From positions 872,138 through 936,137 of the forward strand of contig BCGN01000004.1 of the NCBI GenBank assembly GCA_001599295.1: a stretch of 64,000 nt of DNA, written 5' to 3'. How positions within the stretch are numbered: the first letter of the stretch is position 1; every line of letters starts with the position of its first letter. The translations under genes were made by a program, and so were the position numbers. Under the pieces are notes generated by a model. It searched no databases, was not told the origin of the DNA, and was given only the letters and a program-made list of their open reading frames with translations. Below, piece by piece: positions 10,337 through 45,223 of the stretch. This DNA comes from Sporopachydermia quercuum. Its lineage: Eukaryota.

Positions 10337-12978
10337 ATGGCTCGATCAACAAACGTCCTTTCTCGTAAGTAGTTTTCTTCTCCTTACCTGACATCAATTA
10401 GCACTTCAGCATTTATATATATTAACGTCCAATGACAATACTAACAAGCTGTGATTTAGTCGGTACCAATCCTGGTGTTGGATTTCTTGCTTGGCAATTG
10501 AACTTCTCTGATGCTGTTGATTTAACAATTATGAATAATTCTGTTGTTGATCAAAATGGCTCACAATGGTCGACACCTTTAGGAAATTATCGGTTCAATC
10601 CTGTTAATAAATTCAACACAACCGAGGAAATAGTAAAACAAGGTAAAATATATGATGTAATACTAATTTCGATATCTTCTCTTCAGGACATCAAAAAGAT
10701 ATGTGATACCCTGGGTTTGATCATTTCAAGCTGTTTCGGAGGAAACTCATATATTGTTATCGAATCAACGTGTTGTATTCGAATTGAGAGTCTGTTTGAG
10801 CACGCTTTTCCAAGTATTCCAATAATATCGATTCTTCTTGATGGTGATATAAGAAGAATTCACAATCAAAGATTTGACTATTTTCAAAAGTCCACAACAA
10901 TAAACTTATACGTGGGATCAACGTCTTTAAGTAACTCTTCTACCTCACAATTGAAAGCTCNAATCGAAGGTTCAATAAACAACTTCCGACAAGTTCTACA
11001 AATTGCATGCCCTAAGTTTCCTGTTACAAGTTTCAATAATTCTATCGAATTTTTGGAGGTACAATGGAAACTAGCAACCCCAGTGATTGTTTTCCAGTTC
11101 CTTTCCATTTTCTTTGAATGTCCAAACCCAACTGATCTTTTGAATCTGATTTTGGCGAAACCACTCATATCAGGTCTTATTATAGAACTACTGGATCTAT
11201 CCAAAGCAATGGGATGTCAAACAAGCAATGCAGTGAACTATGAAAAACAGATCAGCAGTGAGTTTCTTTCCATGTCGTCACAAAATTCCAGCAAGTCATC
11301 GCAATTACCAATTTACCTCGATACAAANATGAGCTTTTACAACTTTTACCATCAATACCCAATCAATGTAGACACTATTTTATTGCAACCGATTTTACTA
11401 GCTGATGACTATGGACAAAAAACGCCTTACCTTGAGTTTTTATATGCAGTTATCTCGCACTATGTCAATATGAACACAAGTCAAAATAAATCAATTCTTT
11501 TTATACGGAAGCCGCTTCCCTTTTCTACGGGTCCGTCTTCTTTTGGGTATAAAGAACCGAATTCGAAAACAATGCCCAATAGCAACCTGGAANCGTTTAC
11601 TGATAGTGGCTCAGCAACACCAGATTTAAAAGAGTTGGCAGAATTCACTGAGTATGGGAACTCTTTTGATAACGCTATAGGATCGCCGTCATACAAAAGT
11701 AACTCGTCTACATCTTCATCGTCGGATCCTCAACAAATTCAATCAGGTAGTACTATTAAACCTGGAAACTTTAATAAACTGAATTCTGGTTCTGGTTCTT
11801 CACTTTCGTTTCACCCCTCATCGAGATTAGAGAAAGAAGCAGAACTCCTAAGAAGAGAAGAGCTGATTTATGCAAAGGAAATTGAACTTGGACTTCGTAA
11901 AGTCCCTGGAGGGCAGACATCAGCAAACTCAGCACAGCCTGTAAATAACTTGGGAGTTCAATCCGATCTACCATTTGTCCCACCCCCTTCTTTGAACGGA
12001 ATGAATGGCCATTATTCTAGGCCCTCATCAGCTTCTTCACTATCATTATCAATGTCAGGGTACATCAATGGGTTACCTCAATCTTCAAGACAAAGGAACA
12101 CGAAACCTCCAACTGGATATAGAAAGTCAAGGCAAGAATCAAGAGCAACTTTAATACTTGATGAAGATATGGATGTGGATCATAGTGAACCAATGGCTCC
12201 TCTTCCTTCTCAAACAGTTGACAATATTGACATGATGAGTGTAACTCAAAGACGATCTCGTCGAACCATATCCTCAAAGTCGAGATCATATTCAGATCTA
12301 TTAGCCCTAGGTCCTGGAGGTCCAGGATTGAGTACACCATCATCGCCTACTTCTGTTAATCAATCTAGATCAAAATTCCCTGGCCAATCTTCTTTGTCAG
12401 AGTTTCCTTATACAGGTCAATTTGGGACAGCCGGTGTTAGACATGGGTCATACTCGAGCGGAATACGATCTCCAAATCAAGTCAATAGACCGTTAGATCC
12501 AATATACTATGTTCCTCCGACTCCAAAAGCGAACTATGGCCCCAAAGTATCACCAAGATTGAAACAAAGGGAGTTTACCCGAAGCAATACTCTCAATATG
12601 TCCAACAGTAATGGTTCTCTGAACAATATTGCTAATAATAACTTCTCGAATTCATACGGGACTCCCTCCAATGGAACGAATACAAAAATTGGAGCTCCGT
12701 CTTTTCCTTCAGGTAACAGAGGAAATAGCTCAAATGATACGGTTCAAGAGCAAAGACGTGTCATTAATTTGGATAGTAAAACAGCTCCAGATAATGATAC
12801 TACACACAATACAATGAGAAACGATAGAGATTCTGCCGCCATGATGAATAAATCCAATAGTAAGGTTTCTTTGACCTCGCAATCAACAGCAGGTATGAAC
12901 GGTCAAAAAGAGACAAGTACCAAAAGTGGTAGGGGGTTCTTTGGATTTCGTAGAAAGAAAAGTAAGAACAAGAAATAA
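10337..12978 (+). CDS. SVL3: Svl3/Pam1-family protein (N-terminal ApbA-like fold, long Ser/Asn-rich tail); exons 10337-10364, 10460-12978
   Basis: Intron GTAAGT(10365)..TACTAAC..TAG(10459) gives MARSTNVLSLGTNP. Motifs SISSLQ, ILAKPLISGLI.EL and LLQPILLADDYG.KTPYLEFLY resemble Svl3/Pam1. Neighbourhood with EGD1 agrees. Confidence 0.85.
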
Positions 12979-13475
12979 CGCCAGAAATCTGCTTTTAAGT
13001 ATAGTATAGAATAATGAAATCCTAATTTATTAATCAAGTTCCTCTTTATTTTTTCGCTCCGTAAGTCATGAATGTTTCACTTTAAATCACGATCTGTCCT
13101 TTATATAAAACTCTGTTGTGTGATACAACGTTTATTGCCTTTCTCAGTCATAAATCTATACTTTCATGCTATAGAACTTATTTCATCAGACTTGATGATC
13201 ATTAGACAAATCAGTTAGTGTATGCCTTTTAACGATTATGTAATCATAAAAGGTGTTGATATTTTCGTGATTGAAATTACTCAAGCTTCTCAGTACATCT
13301 TGTCACTAACCCACAAAGGCAAAATGTCGACAGAAAATAGGAAGTGATTGAAAAATATGAAAATNACAAACTCTGACCCCACCTTATATCTGAGGAAGGC
13401 CAAACGATCGAATATGAGGTATTGGTAATTTTNAAATATTCAGACCTTGAAATAATAAATTAATAACACGACAAA

Positions 13476-14130
13476 ATGGTTGTTGATACTGAAAAACTTG
13501 CCCGATTACAAAAGGCTGCTGCCGCTGCTAGAATTGGTATGTAATGAGATTTTAGGAAGCGATGTGATTGGGAGTAATTGGCAGACATTAATATATATCA
13601 TGAATTATATTTATACTAACAAACAATAAAACAGGGTATGGAAGAATTGAAGACGATTATTTATGAACCAATTTTTGAATTTTGAATCAAATTACTAACT
13701 TTGAAACAGTGGTAAGGGTACACCAAGAAGAACCGTTAGAAAAGCCGGCCAAGGAAATGCTGTCGATGACAAGAAGTTACAAGCCACTTTGAGAAAGTTG
13801 AATGCTCAAAACATCCCTGATATTCAAGAGGCCAATTTCTTCCAAGACAACGGAAAAGTTATTCATTTCGACAGAGTTGCTGTGCAAGGAGCTGTTACCA
13901 GTAACACCTATGGTTTCTACGGTAAGGGTGAAGAAAAGGATATTGCTGAACTTGTACCTGGTATTTTGACTCAATTAGGATCTGAATCTCTTGATGCTTT
14001 AAGAGTTTTGGCCGAACAAATGCAAGCTCAACAAGCCGCTGCTGGTGCCACTGGTGAAACCAAGGAAGCCGGTGATGAAGAAATCCCTGAACTTGTTGAA
14101 GGTGAAACCTTCGAAGACAATGTCGAGTAA
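13476..14130 (+). CDS. EGD1: Nascent polypeptide-associated complex beta subunit (BTF3); exons 13476-13536, 13635 (1 nt), 13710-14130
   Basis: MVVDTEKLARLQKAAAAARIGGKGTPRR..DDKKLQATLRKL..ELVPGILTQLG is typical NAC-beta. The spliced length 61+1+421=483 nt is in frame. Confidence 0.95.
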
Positions 14131-15657
14131 ACAGTTTGTATATGATTTGGCTTAACAGCTGAAGTAGTTAACGCGATTTATGCTCATTCATGAAATTTGA
14201 CTGTAGAGATAGTTACAATGGTATCTTAATTATTCAAGAGTTGGTTTGGCTATTGAACAACCTGAATTATGAACTTGGAATCGGATTGTTATCTTGTTGA
14301 TGGTGTAATGGAACACTGAAGTATATTATTTTTTTTAGTAATGTGAGATTTTAGAGTAAACCGAATAACCATATACTTGTCTANCAATTTGATCTATTGT
14401 TTGATTCAAACAAATCAAGCTGATGATAATAATAATATATACCCATTCACTCTCCAAAAACGACCTGATACAAGTCTCATGCTTTATTTCAATCAACCTA
14501 CGAAACCCTACCCCAAACCTTCTTTTCTGGTCCTGTTTTTAAAATGATATCTAATGCTTTATTGTACTACTTCACAAATCTATCCATAGTTTTCGAAGCA
14601 TCACATTACGATTTTAGAGAATCATTTATTCGCTATCTGCGCGCTAATAATTTGGATCCGAGCAAAGTAGCACTGCACCAATAAATATTGACTACCTAGC
14701 AAACTAACTCACTTGTTCGTAAACAGGACGGAAGTTTTTACACAACCGAAGAAGTAGGACAATTGAATCAGTTATGTAACTGAAATGATGTAGTAAGTTC
14801 AACTGTTAAGTGGAACGAACATCCATGAAATCATCATGAAATCACTAATATATAAATAACCCTGACAGTTGAGTTATCTTTGAAGTAGCAGCCTGTTTAG
14901 GTTCATTAATTCTTTTCAAGAGATCGTAATTCTGACAGGAGTTACGAAAATAGGTTTGTCTCAGAAATTTAGAATCAAACAACATAGTCGGCATCCTTTT
15001 CAAAATTTTGATTGTTCTAGAAACCAGAATCAGGAATATCAAATCCGTATTCCAAAAGATGAAACCATTCCTCAATGAGGAAATAGCCCTATATACTGAC
15101 CTCTTTATTGTGAGGTAGTAGCTATTTTTATGCTTTTCTCCATCTTCCCCTATCTTATTGAGAAGGGATTGATGTAAGAGAGTCAATTGCTTCTGAAAAA
15201 ATTAAACTTCTTTTTTTTTGTTAGAAGGAAATTTCACGAAAAAAGACTTTAACTCTGCTTTTGCAGCTCTTGATAATATGAACTATAACTTTTAAGATGT
15301 AACTTTAACCTTCTTAATAAGAAGAACCAATTTAAGTTATTCGTACACAATGGATTAACTTCCATCATATGGTGTCTCGTATTAATCAAAAGTATATAAG
15401 ATCTCCATGCTTTACCTCAACCATCTAGTTTGTTGTTTGGTAGGGCTTGTTGGAAATAACCAGCTTTAAACGCATTGTATTTCTAGGTCACTTATCTAGA
15501 TATCTATCATCTACAAGAAAGAAATGCAAGGGAAATTTACCTTTGTGACGATAGTATATTGCGGAGAAATCAATTCTAGACCAAGCGGATTAGTAGTACT
15601 GTTTGCCCTATAGGAAACAACAGGTTATCATTAAAAAGAAATAGAAAATTATAAAAG

Positions 15658-24017: not shown

Positions 24018-25776
24018 ATGATTGCTGGTAGCAATACATTCAGTATAGAGCCTTACAGGACTCGAAAAGATAGAAGTAGAGTATCAGTCCTAGATAAATA
24101 TGAGATTCTGGGTTATATTGCAGCAGGAACTTATGGAAGGTATGGTTGTATTGACAGTCAAACATGACTGGAAAAATTCCATAAATTAAAGAGAATTGGA
24201 GAAATTTACTAACTGATTGTTCTTCCACCTAGAGTGTATAAAGCTAAGTCAAGGGACAAGTATGCAACCAGTATTACGAACAATGAACAGTGGTTGCACT
24301 TTGAGTTGAAACCATCTGCATAGAATTCGAAAATCGAAGTCCAGCTGTCAGACTAACAAATGTTAAATAGAAACAACAAAGCGTTATATGCTATCAAAAA
24401 ATTCAAAGGAGATAAAGAAGGAGAGATTCTTCACTATACTGGCATCTCTCAGTCAGCATGTAGAGAGATGGCTGTATGTATTACAATACTACAATTTGTT
24501 ATTACAGTAAATCCCTGAGAAGAGGGAACAATCTTGTTACAAATTTTTGAAACTAACAGAGTATTAATCAACAACTAGTTATGTAGAGAGCTAGATCATA
24601 GAAACATAACAAAGCTAGTGGAGAATATACTAGAGAATAAATGCATTTACATGGTTTTTGAGTTTGCAGAACATGATTTACTGGTATGTTGAATTGTTCA
24701 GTTACTCTAGTTGGGAGGCTATTGAGAAATAATTCGAGGATCTTTTTTTCCTTCAGTTTCCGGAGATATTGTTGTATTAACTATCTATAGCAAATTATTC
24801 ATTTTCATTCACATCCTGATAGGAAACCGATTCCTGGTTCTATATTCAAATCAATAATATGGCAAATATTAAACGGGGTCTCATACCTTCATCAAAACTG
24901 GATATTCCATCGCGATTTGAAGCCTGCTAATATTATGGTAACAAATGACGGAGTGGTGAAAATTGGAGATTTGGGTCTAGCACGGTTATTCAGTTCACCT
25001 TTACAATCTTTATACTCTGGTGACAAAGTAGTAGTGACAATTTGGTATAGAGCACCTGAACTATTACTTGGAGGTCATCATTATACGCCAGCTATTGATT
25101 TATGGGCAGTTGGATGTATATTGGCTGAATTACTTGCTCTAAGACCTATATTCAAAGGTGAGGAAGCTAAGCTCGACAACAAAAAAAACGATCCATTTCA
25201 AAGGAATCAAATGCAGAAAATTGTTGAGATTCTTGGAATGCCCAATAAATCAGTATGGCCAAGCTTACCTAGATATCCAGAGTTTCATAATTTACAAACT
25301 TTGAAGGCTTATCCCTATAGTTTGGAAACATGGTTTAAATCCGTTGGTGGTAGAAATCAGAATAAGTATAATTTGCTTTCTGCTCTACTGACATATGATC
25401 CGACTAAACGGATTACTGCTGCCGATGCTTTGCTTCATCCATATTTTAGAGAGGACTCACCTGTTACAGATAAGTAAGTTATTTCAGTATTTAAGTTCCC
25501 TGAAGCTATGATCAGAAATTTTCTCAACATCTATGTTGTATTATTGTCGATTGATTGACTGATTGATTGAAAGCTGAAGGATCACCTTATTTGTATTTGA
25601 TTTCTAAGTCTGTGTAACTAACATGTTTTACTTGAAGTGTTTTTGAGGGTCAGAAGTACGAATATCCAGCAAGAAGGATATCCAATGAAGATAACAATAT
25701 AATATCATCGGTTTCAGGAACAAAACGGTCGAGCAACATAGACGATTCTTTTCGCTTGAGGAAAAAGGTCAAGTAG
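24018..25776 (+). CDS. SSN3: Mediator cyclin-dependent kinase CDK8; exons 24018-24139, 24233-24259, 24371-24473, 24579-24683, 24791-25473, 25638-25776
   Basis: [49 protein letters not shown] and [17 protein letters not shown]. Five introns reconstruct one continuous frame. Confidence 0.96.
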
Positions 25777-35202: not shown

Positions 35203-35360
35203 TCAAACTATTTTTCACATTGGTGTTCCAAACAACAATCAAGACATTTTTTATTATCTTTCTAGAAACTATTACAGCGGGTGCGACATAAAATTGAAAG
35301 ATTTCAACTTTCATTTATATAGGTTATCCTGTGATTACTTATTGTTCCACTTGAATCATC

Positions 35361-36866
35361 ATGAGTCTGCCCAAAGTCACTATTCATGATCCTACACCAT
35401 TGGTTGCCTCAAAAGGTGCCAAGTCTGCTGCAAAACTTCGTTCAAAATCAAGTGAACAAGAGGCCTTAAAAAACAGTATCGAAACATTCAGACAGGATCA
35501 ATGGACACCAACTTCTTGGCAAGCAAAGCCTATAAAACAGGATGTTTTGTACGATGATGAGGAGGAAGTTGAAAGGGCATTGAAAAAGTTGGAATCATTA
35601 CCTCCCTTAGTTCATCCAAAGGAGATCAATAGTTTGAAACAAAAGCTGAAGATGGCTGCCGAAGGTAAGGCATTTGTTTTACAAGGTGGTGACTGCGCTG
35701 AGTTATTTGATTATTGCAATCAAGATAAAATTGAAGGTAAATTGAAAGTTTTACTGCAAATGTCACTAGTATTGATTTGGGCTATGAAACTTCCGGTTGT
35801 AAGAATTGGTCGTATTGCCGGTCAGTACGCTAAACCAAGGAGTCAATTAACCGAAATTGTGAACGGAGTTGAAATTCCTTCCTTCCGTGGAGATAATGTA
35901 AACGGCTTTGATATAAATGAAAGAAGACCTGACCCTGAACGACTGGTTAAAGCTTATTTCCACTCTGCGGCGACATTGAATTTCATTCGAAGTAGTTTGA
36001 GTAATGGGTTTGCTGATTTAAAAGATCCTGTTGAATGGGATTTAAGTCATGTTAAGAACAGCTCTACAAAGAAGAGGTATGAAGATGTTGTGAAAAGTTT
36101 AAGTGAATGTTTACAGTTCATGACAACTATTGGAGTCGATAATAACTCAGCTGAATTTTCAACAGTTGATTTCTTCACAAGTCATGAGGCGTTGTTGTTG
36201 GAATATGAACAAAGTTTAACTAGAAAGCTAAAGGATCCACAGGACGGCACTTTCAAATGGTTCAATACCTCTGCACACTTTATTTGGATTGGTGATCGAA
36301 CAAGGCAACTTGATTGTTCTCATGTTGAGTTTTTCAGAGGTGTTCAAAATCCTATTGGAGTTAAGGTTGGTCCATCTATGAAAGATGAGGAGTTATGTGA
36401 TTTGTTGGACATTGTTGATCCAAATTTCGAAATTGGAAGAGTCACATTGATTACACGTTACGGTGCCAATAAGGTTGAAGAGTACTTACCAGGTCATATT
36501 CAAGCTGTTAAGAAAACAAAACATAAAATCGTATGGATATGCGATCCTTGCCATGGTAATACAAAGAAGTCACCTAATACTCAATTGAAGACACGTTATT
36601 TCGAAGATATAATCACTGAATTGTCAAAATGTTTAACAATCCATAGAGAAAATGGTAATAAGTTGAACGGCGTACATTTGGAGCTAACTGGTGATTCAGT
36701 TACTGAATGTATTGGTGGAACAGAAGAATTGGAGGATGATGATTTAAGTGTAAGGTATGAAACATATTGTGATCCTCGATTAAATGATACACAATCTTTA
36801 GATGCAGCATTCCTCATAGCAGATTATTTCCGTGGTGGTGATTTAATGAAAGAGATTGAAAATTAA
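35361..36866 (+). CDS. Class II DAHP synthase (phospho-2-dehydro-3-deoxyheptonate aldolase, AroA-II type)
   Basis: LQGGDCAELF, RIAGQYAKPRS, SFRGDNVNG, WIGDRTRQ, CDPCHGNT, GVHLELTG and YETYCDPRLN are class II signatures. Confidence 0.95.
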   Translation: MSLPKVTIHDPTPLVASKGAKSAAKLRSKSSEQEALKNSIETFRQDQWTPTSWQAKPIKQDVLYDDEEEVERALKKLESLPPLVHPKEINSLKQKLKMAAEGKAFVLQGGDCAELFDYCNQDKIEGKLKVLLQMSLVLIWAMKLPVVRIGRIAGQYAKPRSQLTEIVNGVEIPSFRGDNVNGFDINERRPDPERLVKAYFHSAATLNFIRSSLSNGFADLKDPVEWDLSHVKNSSTKKRYEDVVKSLSECLQFMTTIGVDNNSAEFSTVDFFTSHEALLLEYEQSLTRKLKDPQDGTFKWFNTSAHFIWIGDRTRQLDCSHVEFFRGVQNPIGVKVGPSMKDEELCDLLDIVDPNFEIGRVTLITRYGANKVEEYLPGHIQAVKKTKHKIVWICDPCHGNTKKSPNTQLKTRYFEDIITELSKCLTIHRENGNKLNGVHLELTGDSVTECIGGTEELEDDDLSVRYETYCDPRLNDTQSLDAAFLIADYFRGGDLMKEIEN

Positions 36867-44305: not shown

Positions 44306-45223
44306 ATGTCAGAATTAATTCAGTATGTTAGATGGTAATTTTACATTCTTTTAAATATGTTAAGTTGATTTAATGAATACTAACAACAATATAGATTGGT
44401 AAACCAGATACCTCCAGTGACTCGGTCAATTGTTCTGGGGTCTTTGTTGATTACAGCTCTAAATGCAACAACTGTTGTACCATCATCAACTTTTATTAAC
44501 TATTGGCCATGGACATTCGGAAGATATCATTTATGGAGACCTATTACTGCCTTCTTAGTCCCTGTGGGGCAACCAATGCAGTGTTTGATGGAGATTTATA
44601 TGTGTTACAGTTACTCTCGTGGCATTGAAACAGGAAAGTTTTCTAACATCACAGCAAATTATGCATATTATCTATTGATTATTGGAGTTTTGATTTCAGC
44701 ACAATCATATTTCACGAATGCTCTATCTTTCTTCTCGCCGATGTTATCGGCCCTAACATACACATGGGCACAAGATAATTTAGATACTCAAGTAATGTTT
44801 TACTTCATTCAATTCAAAGCACGACATTTGTCATTTGTTGTCTTGGGGTTCAGATTATTAATTGAAGGTTCATCTGCATTATTCATCGCCGCTAGTGGAA
44901 TGGCTGCGGCATACATTTACAAAGTACTAGATGAAGGTGGTATTGATCCTGATGATTGGTCAGTATTGGGTAAATTTATCCCAACAAGATTCACTAAACA
45001 AAATACCAGACGATGGATCTCTACTCCAAGATGGTTGCGATCATTATTTCCAAGTGGATCAGCTGGAAGATCTGTAGGAGCAGGAGGCAAAGGAGTTGAA
45101 AAGCGATCATTTGGTACTGTATATAATCCACCTGAAGAGAGACGATCACAGGCCACGTCATCAGGAATAGCAAGTCATTTTACTAGTAGTAGATGGGGTA
45201 GAGGGCATAGATTAGGTGATTAG
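44306..45223 (+). CDS. DFM1: Derlin (rhomboid pseudoprotease) with C-terminal SHP box; exons 44306-44322, 44395-45223
   Basis: IPPVTR, HLWRPITAF and terminal WGRGHRLG SHP box. Intron GTATGT..TACTAAC..TAG gives MSELIQLVNQIPP. Confidence 0.88.

Follow-up and report, generated by a model that had tools for sequence, protein, structure and literature searches.

The window (the whole 64,000-nucleotide stretch of DNA that was analysed) carries a NAC-beta (EGD1/BTF3) gene on the + strand, which extends from the ATG at 13476 to the TAA at 14128-14130. NAC-beta is a subunit of an abundant chaperone that associates with ribosomes. The frame of this gene is open when a single base, G13635, is kept as a putative exon between two introns. 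The elements of the locus, including one competing donor, are as follows:

13476..13536, + strand: exon 1 of NAC-beta, 61 nt, which encodes MVVDTEKLARLQKAAAAARI followed by G13536, the first base of the first Gly codon; it ends AGA ATT G.
13537..13634, + strand: intron A, 98 nt, 28% G+C, with the donor GTATGT at 13537-13542, TACTAAC at 13614-13620 and CAG at 13632-13634.
13635..13635, + strand: putative exon of one base, a G that supplies the middle position of the first Gly codon in RIGGKGTPRR.
13636..13709, + strand: intron B, 74 nt, 26% G+C, with the donor GTATGG at 13636-13641, TACTAAC at 13693-13699 and CAG at 13707-13709.
13710..14130, + strand: exon 3, which reads T GGT AAG GGT ACA CCA AGA AGA and onwards to the TAA at 14128-14130, and which encodes the NAC domain.
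13541..13546, + strand: rival donor GTAATG, a +4 shift of GTATGTAATG, with no G at intron position 5.

The NAC domain encoded by exon 3 (Pfam PF01849, E-value: 8.6e-20, 70.9 bits with a cut-off of 21.3) covers residues 20-76 of 139. The exon 3 protein has 393 homologues at E ≤ 0.001, with 57% identity to the top match; among the homologues listed, those with names are mostly annotated as NAC-beta, BTF3 or NAC-domain protein, and the remainder as "hypothetical". Besides the NAC domain, the assignment of the gene to NAC-beta is supported by the RIGGKGTPRR motif (which needs G13635) and by full-length similarity to NAC-beta proteins. The N-terminal peptide of the predicted product is similar to the MVDAEKLAKLQKSVRIGGKG type of other yeasts, and we take the RIGGKGTPRR N-terminus to sit ahead of the ribosome-binding basic motif of NAC-beta.

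Further downstream, the window encodes a class-II (plant-type) DAHP synthase (35355-36863, + strand; PF01474, E-value: 5e-199). Those of its yeast relatives that carry names come from early-branching genera only (Blastobotrys, Geotrichum, Lipomyces, Nadsonia and Tortispora). This protein shows 64-69% identity to proteins of Blastobotrys, Geotrichum, Lipomyces, Trichomonascus, Nadsonia, Magnusiomyces and Tortispora, as compared to 60-63% for Pezizomycetes proteins. Based on these identities, the window can be assigned to an early-branching Saccharomycotina yeast without a close relative in the protein collection searched. Directly upstream of NAC-beta is a Ser/Asn-rich open frame of 850 codons (10426-12978, + strand); because this frame is entered directly after TACTAAC-AAG at 10439-10448, the upstream gene probably also begins with a short exon and an intron. 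This is a draft-quality assembly: 30 N are scattered over the window (13365, 13433 and 14384 among them), none of them inside 13440-14380, an interval that includes the NAC-beta gene.

An initial annotation of this DNA had proposed that G13635 is an exon of one nucleotide between two complete introns. Within 13476-14130, every splice element that it gave is exact to the base, and each intron can be seen in the sequence to have its own donor, TACTAAC and CAG, as claimed. The arrangement AG/G/GT (slashes mark splice boundaries) is accompanied by a full donor, branch site and acceptor on both flanking introns, and no AG comes between the first TACTAAC and the CAG at 13632-13634. TACTAAC by itself is uninformative in the window, where 15 copies are found on the two strands and approximately 14 are expected from base composition (an estimate). 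The composite signal TACTAAC-N(3-33)-AGGGTAHG is informative: the window has one copy, and none of 100 dinucleotide-preserving shuffles contains any.

The donors of five other introns in the window were checked by frame logic, which gave a clean result only for a DER1 intron (44323-44394) and a kinase intron (24140-24232). The first of these belongs to a Der1-like gene (PF04511) with an apparent 17-nt first exon from the ATG at 44306, followed by a 72-nt intron with a GTATGT donor (44323-44394, + strand). The second is the best reading of a kinase-like gene and provides another example of a GTATGG donor: the intron (24140-24232, + strand) is 93 nt in length and contains TACTAAC, and its removal gives the in-frame glycine-loop reading AAGTYGR/VYKAK. 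The kinase-like gene apparently has another intron soon after 24232, as its frame closes approximately 35 codons on.

If both NAC-beta introns are removed and the G is kept, the predicted mRNA reads ATT GGT GGT AAG and encodes a protein of 160 aa with RIGGKGTPRR. If G13635 is skipped (removal of 13537-13709), the frame ends after 47 aa; removal of intron A only gives 30 aa, removal of intron B only gives 22 aa and the unspliced form gives 22 aa. These lengths agree with the earlier statement that joining G, G and T restores RIGGKGTPRR, while skipping the G breaks the frame. All single introns of at least 40 nt with GT/GC-AG ends, a donor in 13480-13759, an acceptor in 13500-13779 and an open frame from ATG to TAA were enumerated. 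Although 27 single introns leave the frame open, only one of these (13541-13709, giving RIGIGKG) retains GKGTPRR. RIGIGKG is therefore the only rival single-intron reading, and it is the same alternative, using the GTAATG donor, that the initial annotation had named. As GTAATG is the only competitor, either the exon of one base is real or a residue is inserted via a donor without a position-5 G. The frame and the conserved protein are restored together solely when the G is kept, while the other in-frame reading adds one residue.

NAC-beta loci from other fungi were collected by scanning metagenome contigs with a NAC-beta protein alignment (A1), and 80 loci were retained. One of the two scan patterns (GGKGTPRRK) matches uninterrupted DNA only, so the uninterrupted class is enriched by construction; interrupted loci were recovered through the second pattern. 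The 80 loci comprise 41 that are uninterrupted across R-x-G-G-K-G, 31 of a phase-2 class, six with a phase-1 intron and two others. L012 and L079 miss the regular expression, yet are uninterrupted too. In the phase-2 class, exon 3 begins one base before GGN AAG in 31 genomic loci. In 31/31 of these, AG/G/GT is found between exon 1 (ending in R-I plus G) and exon 3, and the lone base is G in every one. Lengths range from 53 to 305 nt for intron A and from 70 to 302 nt for intron B, and the donors of both are ordinary (GTATGT, GTGAGC, GTACGT, GTAAGC and GTAAGA among them). L034 has two AGGGT candidates, with the good donor belonging to the second. The first base of exon 3 in the two-intron loci is A, T or C.

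The 31 loci contain 25 distinct intervening sequences and represent 16 lineages at 93-97% identity (first 168 coding bases). Within 45 nt of its 3' end, intron A contains a branch-like CTRAY motif in 24 of the 25 distinct sequences, and intron B does so in all 25. Among named proteins, the closest are those of Cadophora (L014), Aureobasidium (L018 and L019), Penicillium citrinum (L022), Alectoria and Lepraria (L027, L029 and L038) and Lizonia and Ophiobolus (L064 and L076), while L031 and L037 are close to an Orbilia protein whose annotated sequence lacks one residue. Judged by resemblance, the loci come from at least four Pezizomycotina classes (Leotio-, Dothideo-, Eurotio- and Lecanoromycetes). 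These comparisons indicate that the NAC-beta gene of filamentous ascomycetes, including many moulds and lichen fungi, usually has a one-base exon at this codon. An alignment across yeasts and moulds had been suggested as a check: AG/G/GT is present in 31/31 mould-like loci, and a second Saccharomycotina genome with the arrangement was not found among the annotated proteins of nine early-branching genera and the 80 metagenome loci.

No single-intron solution giving RIGGKG was found near both boundaries in the 25 distinct loci or the window. L018 and L019 have zero single-intron solutions of any kind, and those of the remaining loci depend either on a shifted acceptor or on unrelated "+4 donors" (GTCACC, GTCTGC, GTTCCT, GCAGAG).

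At the junction, GGN GGN is found in each of the 41 uninterrupted loci, and none of them has an extra residue there. Their first Gly codon is GGA (18 loci), GGT (12) or GGC (11) and never GGG, which could be explained by codon bias or by avoidance of AG/G/GT...AG/G. Judging from their missing introns, some of the uninterrupted contigs would be spliced (cDNA-like) copies. L008 and L011 are without an intron that is present in genomic relatives; specifically, L008 is continuous at a point where, in the related genomic locus L018, 65 nt separate the matches (966 to 1032). Both contigs align in register with exon 1, the G and exon 3 of L018, L024 and L080 (35-40 of 45 bases per flank). No poly(A) tails were seen on the cDNA-like contigs. 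No transcript and genome pair from the same species is present among the 80 loci, for which the best blastn identity is 92%. The best cDNA-like and genomic pairs show 78-89% identity over the 45-base flanks and are relatives, not conspecific; in an ungapped tblastn comparison, relatives show 85-100% identity per exon. The arrangement is conserved among orthologues (31/31 loci, 16 lineages), and the base is present in the cDNA-like copies of relatives, with GGN GGN in 41/41 uninterrupted loci. These two results give strong, though indirect, support to the central proposal of the initial annotation, that of two abutting introns separated by a one-base exon.

Protein annotations at the junction were surveyed in the best 120 of the 393 homologues, of which 94 are NCBI-annotated and 26 are known from jgi/lgn/merc/ena only. 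Among these best 120, the residues just ahead of GKGTPRR are highly variable. The canonical R-x-G-GKG is found in 25 of the 26 non-NCBI proteins (the exception being P0097), as compared to 26 of the 94 NCBI-annotated proteins. The rest of the 94 have one extra residue (19 proteins), are one residue short (RIGKG, seven proteins), have unrelated sequence upstream (41 proteins) or are truncated (one protein). Extra-residue forms include RIGIGKG, RIGTGKG, RIGEGKG and similar sequences, and none of the 26 non-NCBI proteins has one. The RIG-X-GKG and RIGKG forms that are seen in GenBank proteins are exactly what the single-intron choices in the 25 distinct loci would produce. Because there is no extra residue in the 41 uninterrupted loci or in the 26 non-NCBI proteins, the annotated RIG-X-GKG forms look like predictor artefacts. 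The untidiness of the annotations matches the pattern expected from a hidden exon at this position. Misannotation of NCBI proteins at the R-I-G/G-K-G junction appears to be systematic and traceable to the one-base exon, with 68 of the 94 wrong or doubtful, in keeping with the earlier remark that gene predictors miss such exons. A repair rule can be suggested for ascomycete NAC-beta gene models: AG/G/GT should be sought where phase-1 and phase-2 boundaries cannot join.

Based on these results, G13635 is very probably a genuine one-base exon between two abutting introns of the NAC-beta gene. Three other explanations were considered. In the first, the one-base exon is used non-constitutively, with substantial skipping or retention, NMD and dosage control of NAC-beta. 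This would fit the early stops found in every form other than the fully spliced one (47, 30, 22 and 22 aa), and pairing of donor A with branch site B is conceivable. However, RNA structure above chance was not detected over 13530-13716 (z = 0.28, with 121 of 200 shuffles folding at least as well) and there is no Rfam match in 13000-14600. A comparison of introns A and B revealed nothing in common beyond the splice signals: their local similarity score of 15 is reached by 369 of 500 shuffles (null 16.3 ± 2.5). Furthermore, many yeasts are without an intron here (at least the Geotrichum-like L001), so regulation through the intron cannot be essential. We consider this explanation quite unlikely, and skipping/NMD control of NAC-beta to be pure speculation. 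The same intron comparison gives no support to a recent tandem duplication as the origin of the two introns.

The second explanation is a single 169-nt intron from the GTAATG at 13541 to the CAG at 13709, with a product of 161 aa containing RIGIGKGTPRR; the internal TACTAAC-CAG-G-GTATGG would then be coincidental. Such a coincidence is not easily reconciled with the absence of the composite signal from all 100 shuffles. While 13541-13709 is the only single intron that keeps both the frame and GKGTPRR, GTAATG is simply a +4 shift of a perfect GTATGT and does not have the G at intron position 5 that is nearly invariant in yeast donors. The one-residue insertion in RIGIGKG might be tolerated and an extra residue is annotated in 19 of the 94 NCBI proteins, but it occurs in neither the 41 uninterrupted loci nor the 26 non-NCBI proteins. 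In addition, the corresponding "+4 donors" of the moulds are unrelated hexamers and L018 and L019 have none, all of which makes this reading very unlikely. The third explanation, an assembly or sequencing artefact or a decaying copy of a gene that truly has one phase-1 intron and has lost or gained a base, is extremely improbable: the 30 N of the window do put the assembly below finished quality, but there are none in 13440-14380, an artefact would not make a second full set of donor, branch site and acceptor, 31 independent loci of other fungi are laid out in the same way and exon 3 encodes an intact NAC domain in an open frame.

We propose that the NAC-beta gene contains two ordinary spliceosomal introns one base apart and that G13635 is a constitutive one-base exon. 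Splicing in yeast proceeds by intron definition, and the acceptor is normally the first AG past the branch site. Each NAC-beta intron would be defined separately: intron A by GTATGT, TACTAAC and the first downstream AG, and intron B by GTATGG, TACTAAC and CAG. With a single base between the acceptor of A and the donor of B, these two sites would never both be in a catalytic spliceosome together, and the introns would be removed in turn. This sequential removal would be much like recursive splicing, but with one base left behind. Intron A is probably removed first, co-transcriptionally, because its branch site and acceptor exist before branch site B is transcribed. G may be favoured in both of its roles, as the +1 base past a 3' splice site and the -1 base before a 5' splice site. 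The resulting mRNA would encode the conserved RIGGKGTPRR N-terminus. With its short introns and near-perfect yeast signals (GTATGT, TACTAAC), the locus may be a minimal natural substrate for two spliceosomes sharing one nucleotide, on which it could be asked in what order the introns are removed and how intron definition avoids skipping.

The position of intron A is shared with the six loci that have a single phase-1 intron (ATT G/GT...AG/GN GGN): L009, L046, L058, L059, L066 and L067. Basidiomycete-like and Sordariales-like loci are both included in this group. L058 is Clavulina-like and basidiomycete-like (0.89 to P0116), while L009 is Podospora-like and Sordariales-like (0.93 to P0022). In L009, the phase-1 intron is the only one and the G is fused to the next exon, as expected if intron B had been lost precisely. 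Five loci (L021, L026, L032, L041 and L068) have neither intron but have interruptions downstream, judged from match lengths. L001 is intronless and scores 1.00 (summed ungapped measure) to the Geotrichum candidum protein P0256. Canonical RIGGKG is found in every one of the annotated proteins from Trichomonascus, Blastobotrys, Sugiyamaella, Geotrichum, Dipodascopsis, Limtongia, Lipomyces, Kockiozyma and Wickerhamiella, which fits an intronless gene and a correctly modelled one alike.

The simplest history suggested by these loci is that of an old phase-1 intron, followed by the gain of a second intron one base downstream and the later loss of one or both. The presence of the arrangement in both a yeast and moulds could reflect either inheritance from a common ancestor or two gains at the same spot; we judge the chances of common descent to be roughly even. 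It is unlikely that the exon is several hundred million years old, derives from the ancestor of Pezizomycotina and Saccharomycotina and has been kept by selection, not by inertia, as an obligatory two-step splicing checkpoint, in which skipping or stalling leads to an early stop and NMD and so tunes the dosage of NAC-beta. If the exon were ancient and selected in this way, alternative loss of either intron would also explain the one-base "sliding" of introns between lineages. Two introns one base apart, each of which is lost in some lineages (L009 and the five loci with neither), would represent a concrete route to 1-nt intron shifts.

The initial annotation had described one-base exons as very rare, with a single reported case in Arabidopsis APC11. 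The APC11 case is indeed published, but its status as the sole example is outdated, as 13 such exons are described in Coprinopsis (PMC12230235) and one in the Fusarium gene CYP621A (PMC12940212). No description of a one-base exon in NAC-beta was found in the open literature (subscription journals and supplements being outside the scope of the search).

Arabidopsis APC11 is reported to contain a constitutive one-base exon (A), 333 nt into a 422-nt interval and flanked by two GT-AG introns (Guo & Liu 2015, PMC4674806). According to that report, the exon is essential for the frame, was overlooked by annotation and was proven with cDNA and reporter mutants; its authors argue that the two introns are removed one after the other, and describe the exon from one plant gene with intronless paralogues in rice (PMC4674806). 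As in APC11, the NAC-beta exon is a single base between two GT-AG introns that restores the frame and is missed by annotation. In contrast to APC11, where the base is A, a single gene is concerned and cDNA provides the proof, the NAC-beta base is G, its flanking introns measure 98 and 74 nt and have a yeast TACTAAC, many fungal lineages are involved and the exon is predicted from sequence.

Among fungi, a one-nucleotide exon is described in the P450 gene CYP621A, in 24 Fusarium genes and with support from SRA reads (Nelson & Syed 2026, PMC12940212). Nelson & Syed call this the first fungal case and the second overall, and state that it was noticed because phase-1 and phase-2 boundaries would not join; the point that the G of AGGGT suits both splice roles is also made there for Fusarium (PMC12940212). 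CYP621A and NAC-beta have in common the pentamer AG/G/GT, the position of the exon as the middle base of a Gly codon in a conserved motif and its conservation among orthologues. CYP621A, as described, is a P450 gene with the exon confined to Fusarium, whereas NAC-beta is a housekeeping gene with the exon in several Pezizomycotina classes and a budding-yeast lineage. The long-read annotation of Coprinopsis cinerea contains 13 one-nucleotide exons in 13 genes, and these are similar to the NAC-beta exon in that they recur in fungal genes and break gene models if missed (PMC12230235). They are from a basidiomycete, whereas the basidiomycete-like NAC-beta loci (L058, L059 and L066) carry a single phase-1 intron.

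Stwintrons, as characterized by Fekete, Flipphi et al., consist of two U2-type units that are removed consecutively; they are described from Pezizomycotina and the yeast Lipomyces and have been tied to 1-nt intron shifts (PMC5587772, PMC7138796). Like stwintrons, the NAC-beta locus would have two intron units in one region that are removed stepwise. In a stwintron, the internal intron splits a splice signal of the external one and no residue is left, whereas the NAC-beta introns appear to be independent and one base stays. NAC-beta does not fit a stwintron for three reasons. First, removal of either unit leaves the other already complete. Second, no new donor or acceptor is created. Third, no parse of this kind gives the conserved protein.

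At Drosophila ratchet points, a 3' splice site abuts a 5' splice site and very long introns are subdivided and removed stepwise, with no base left. The NAC-beta locus shares with these the acceptor beside a donor and, probably, stepwise removal, but its introns are short and one base is retained as coding sequence. A zero-nucleotide recursive splice site can likewise be rejected, as the sequence is AG-G-GT and joining without the G breaks the frame. The NAC-beta exon can thus be regarded as a new, apparently deeply conserved and unusually widespread case of a rare but known type; should the yeast and mould arrangements prove homologous, none of the published one-base exons found would come near it in depth of conservation.
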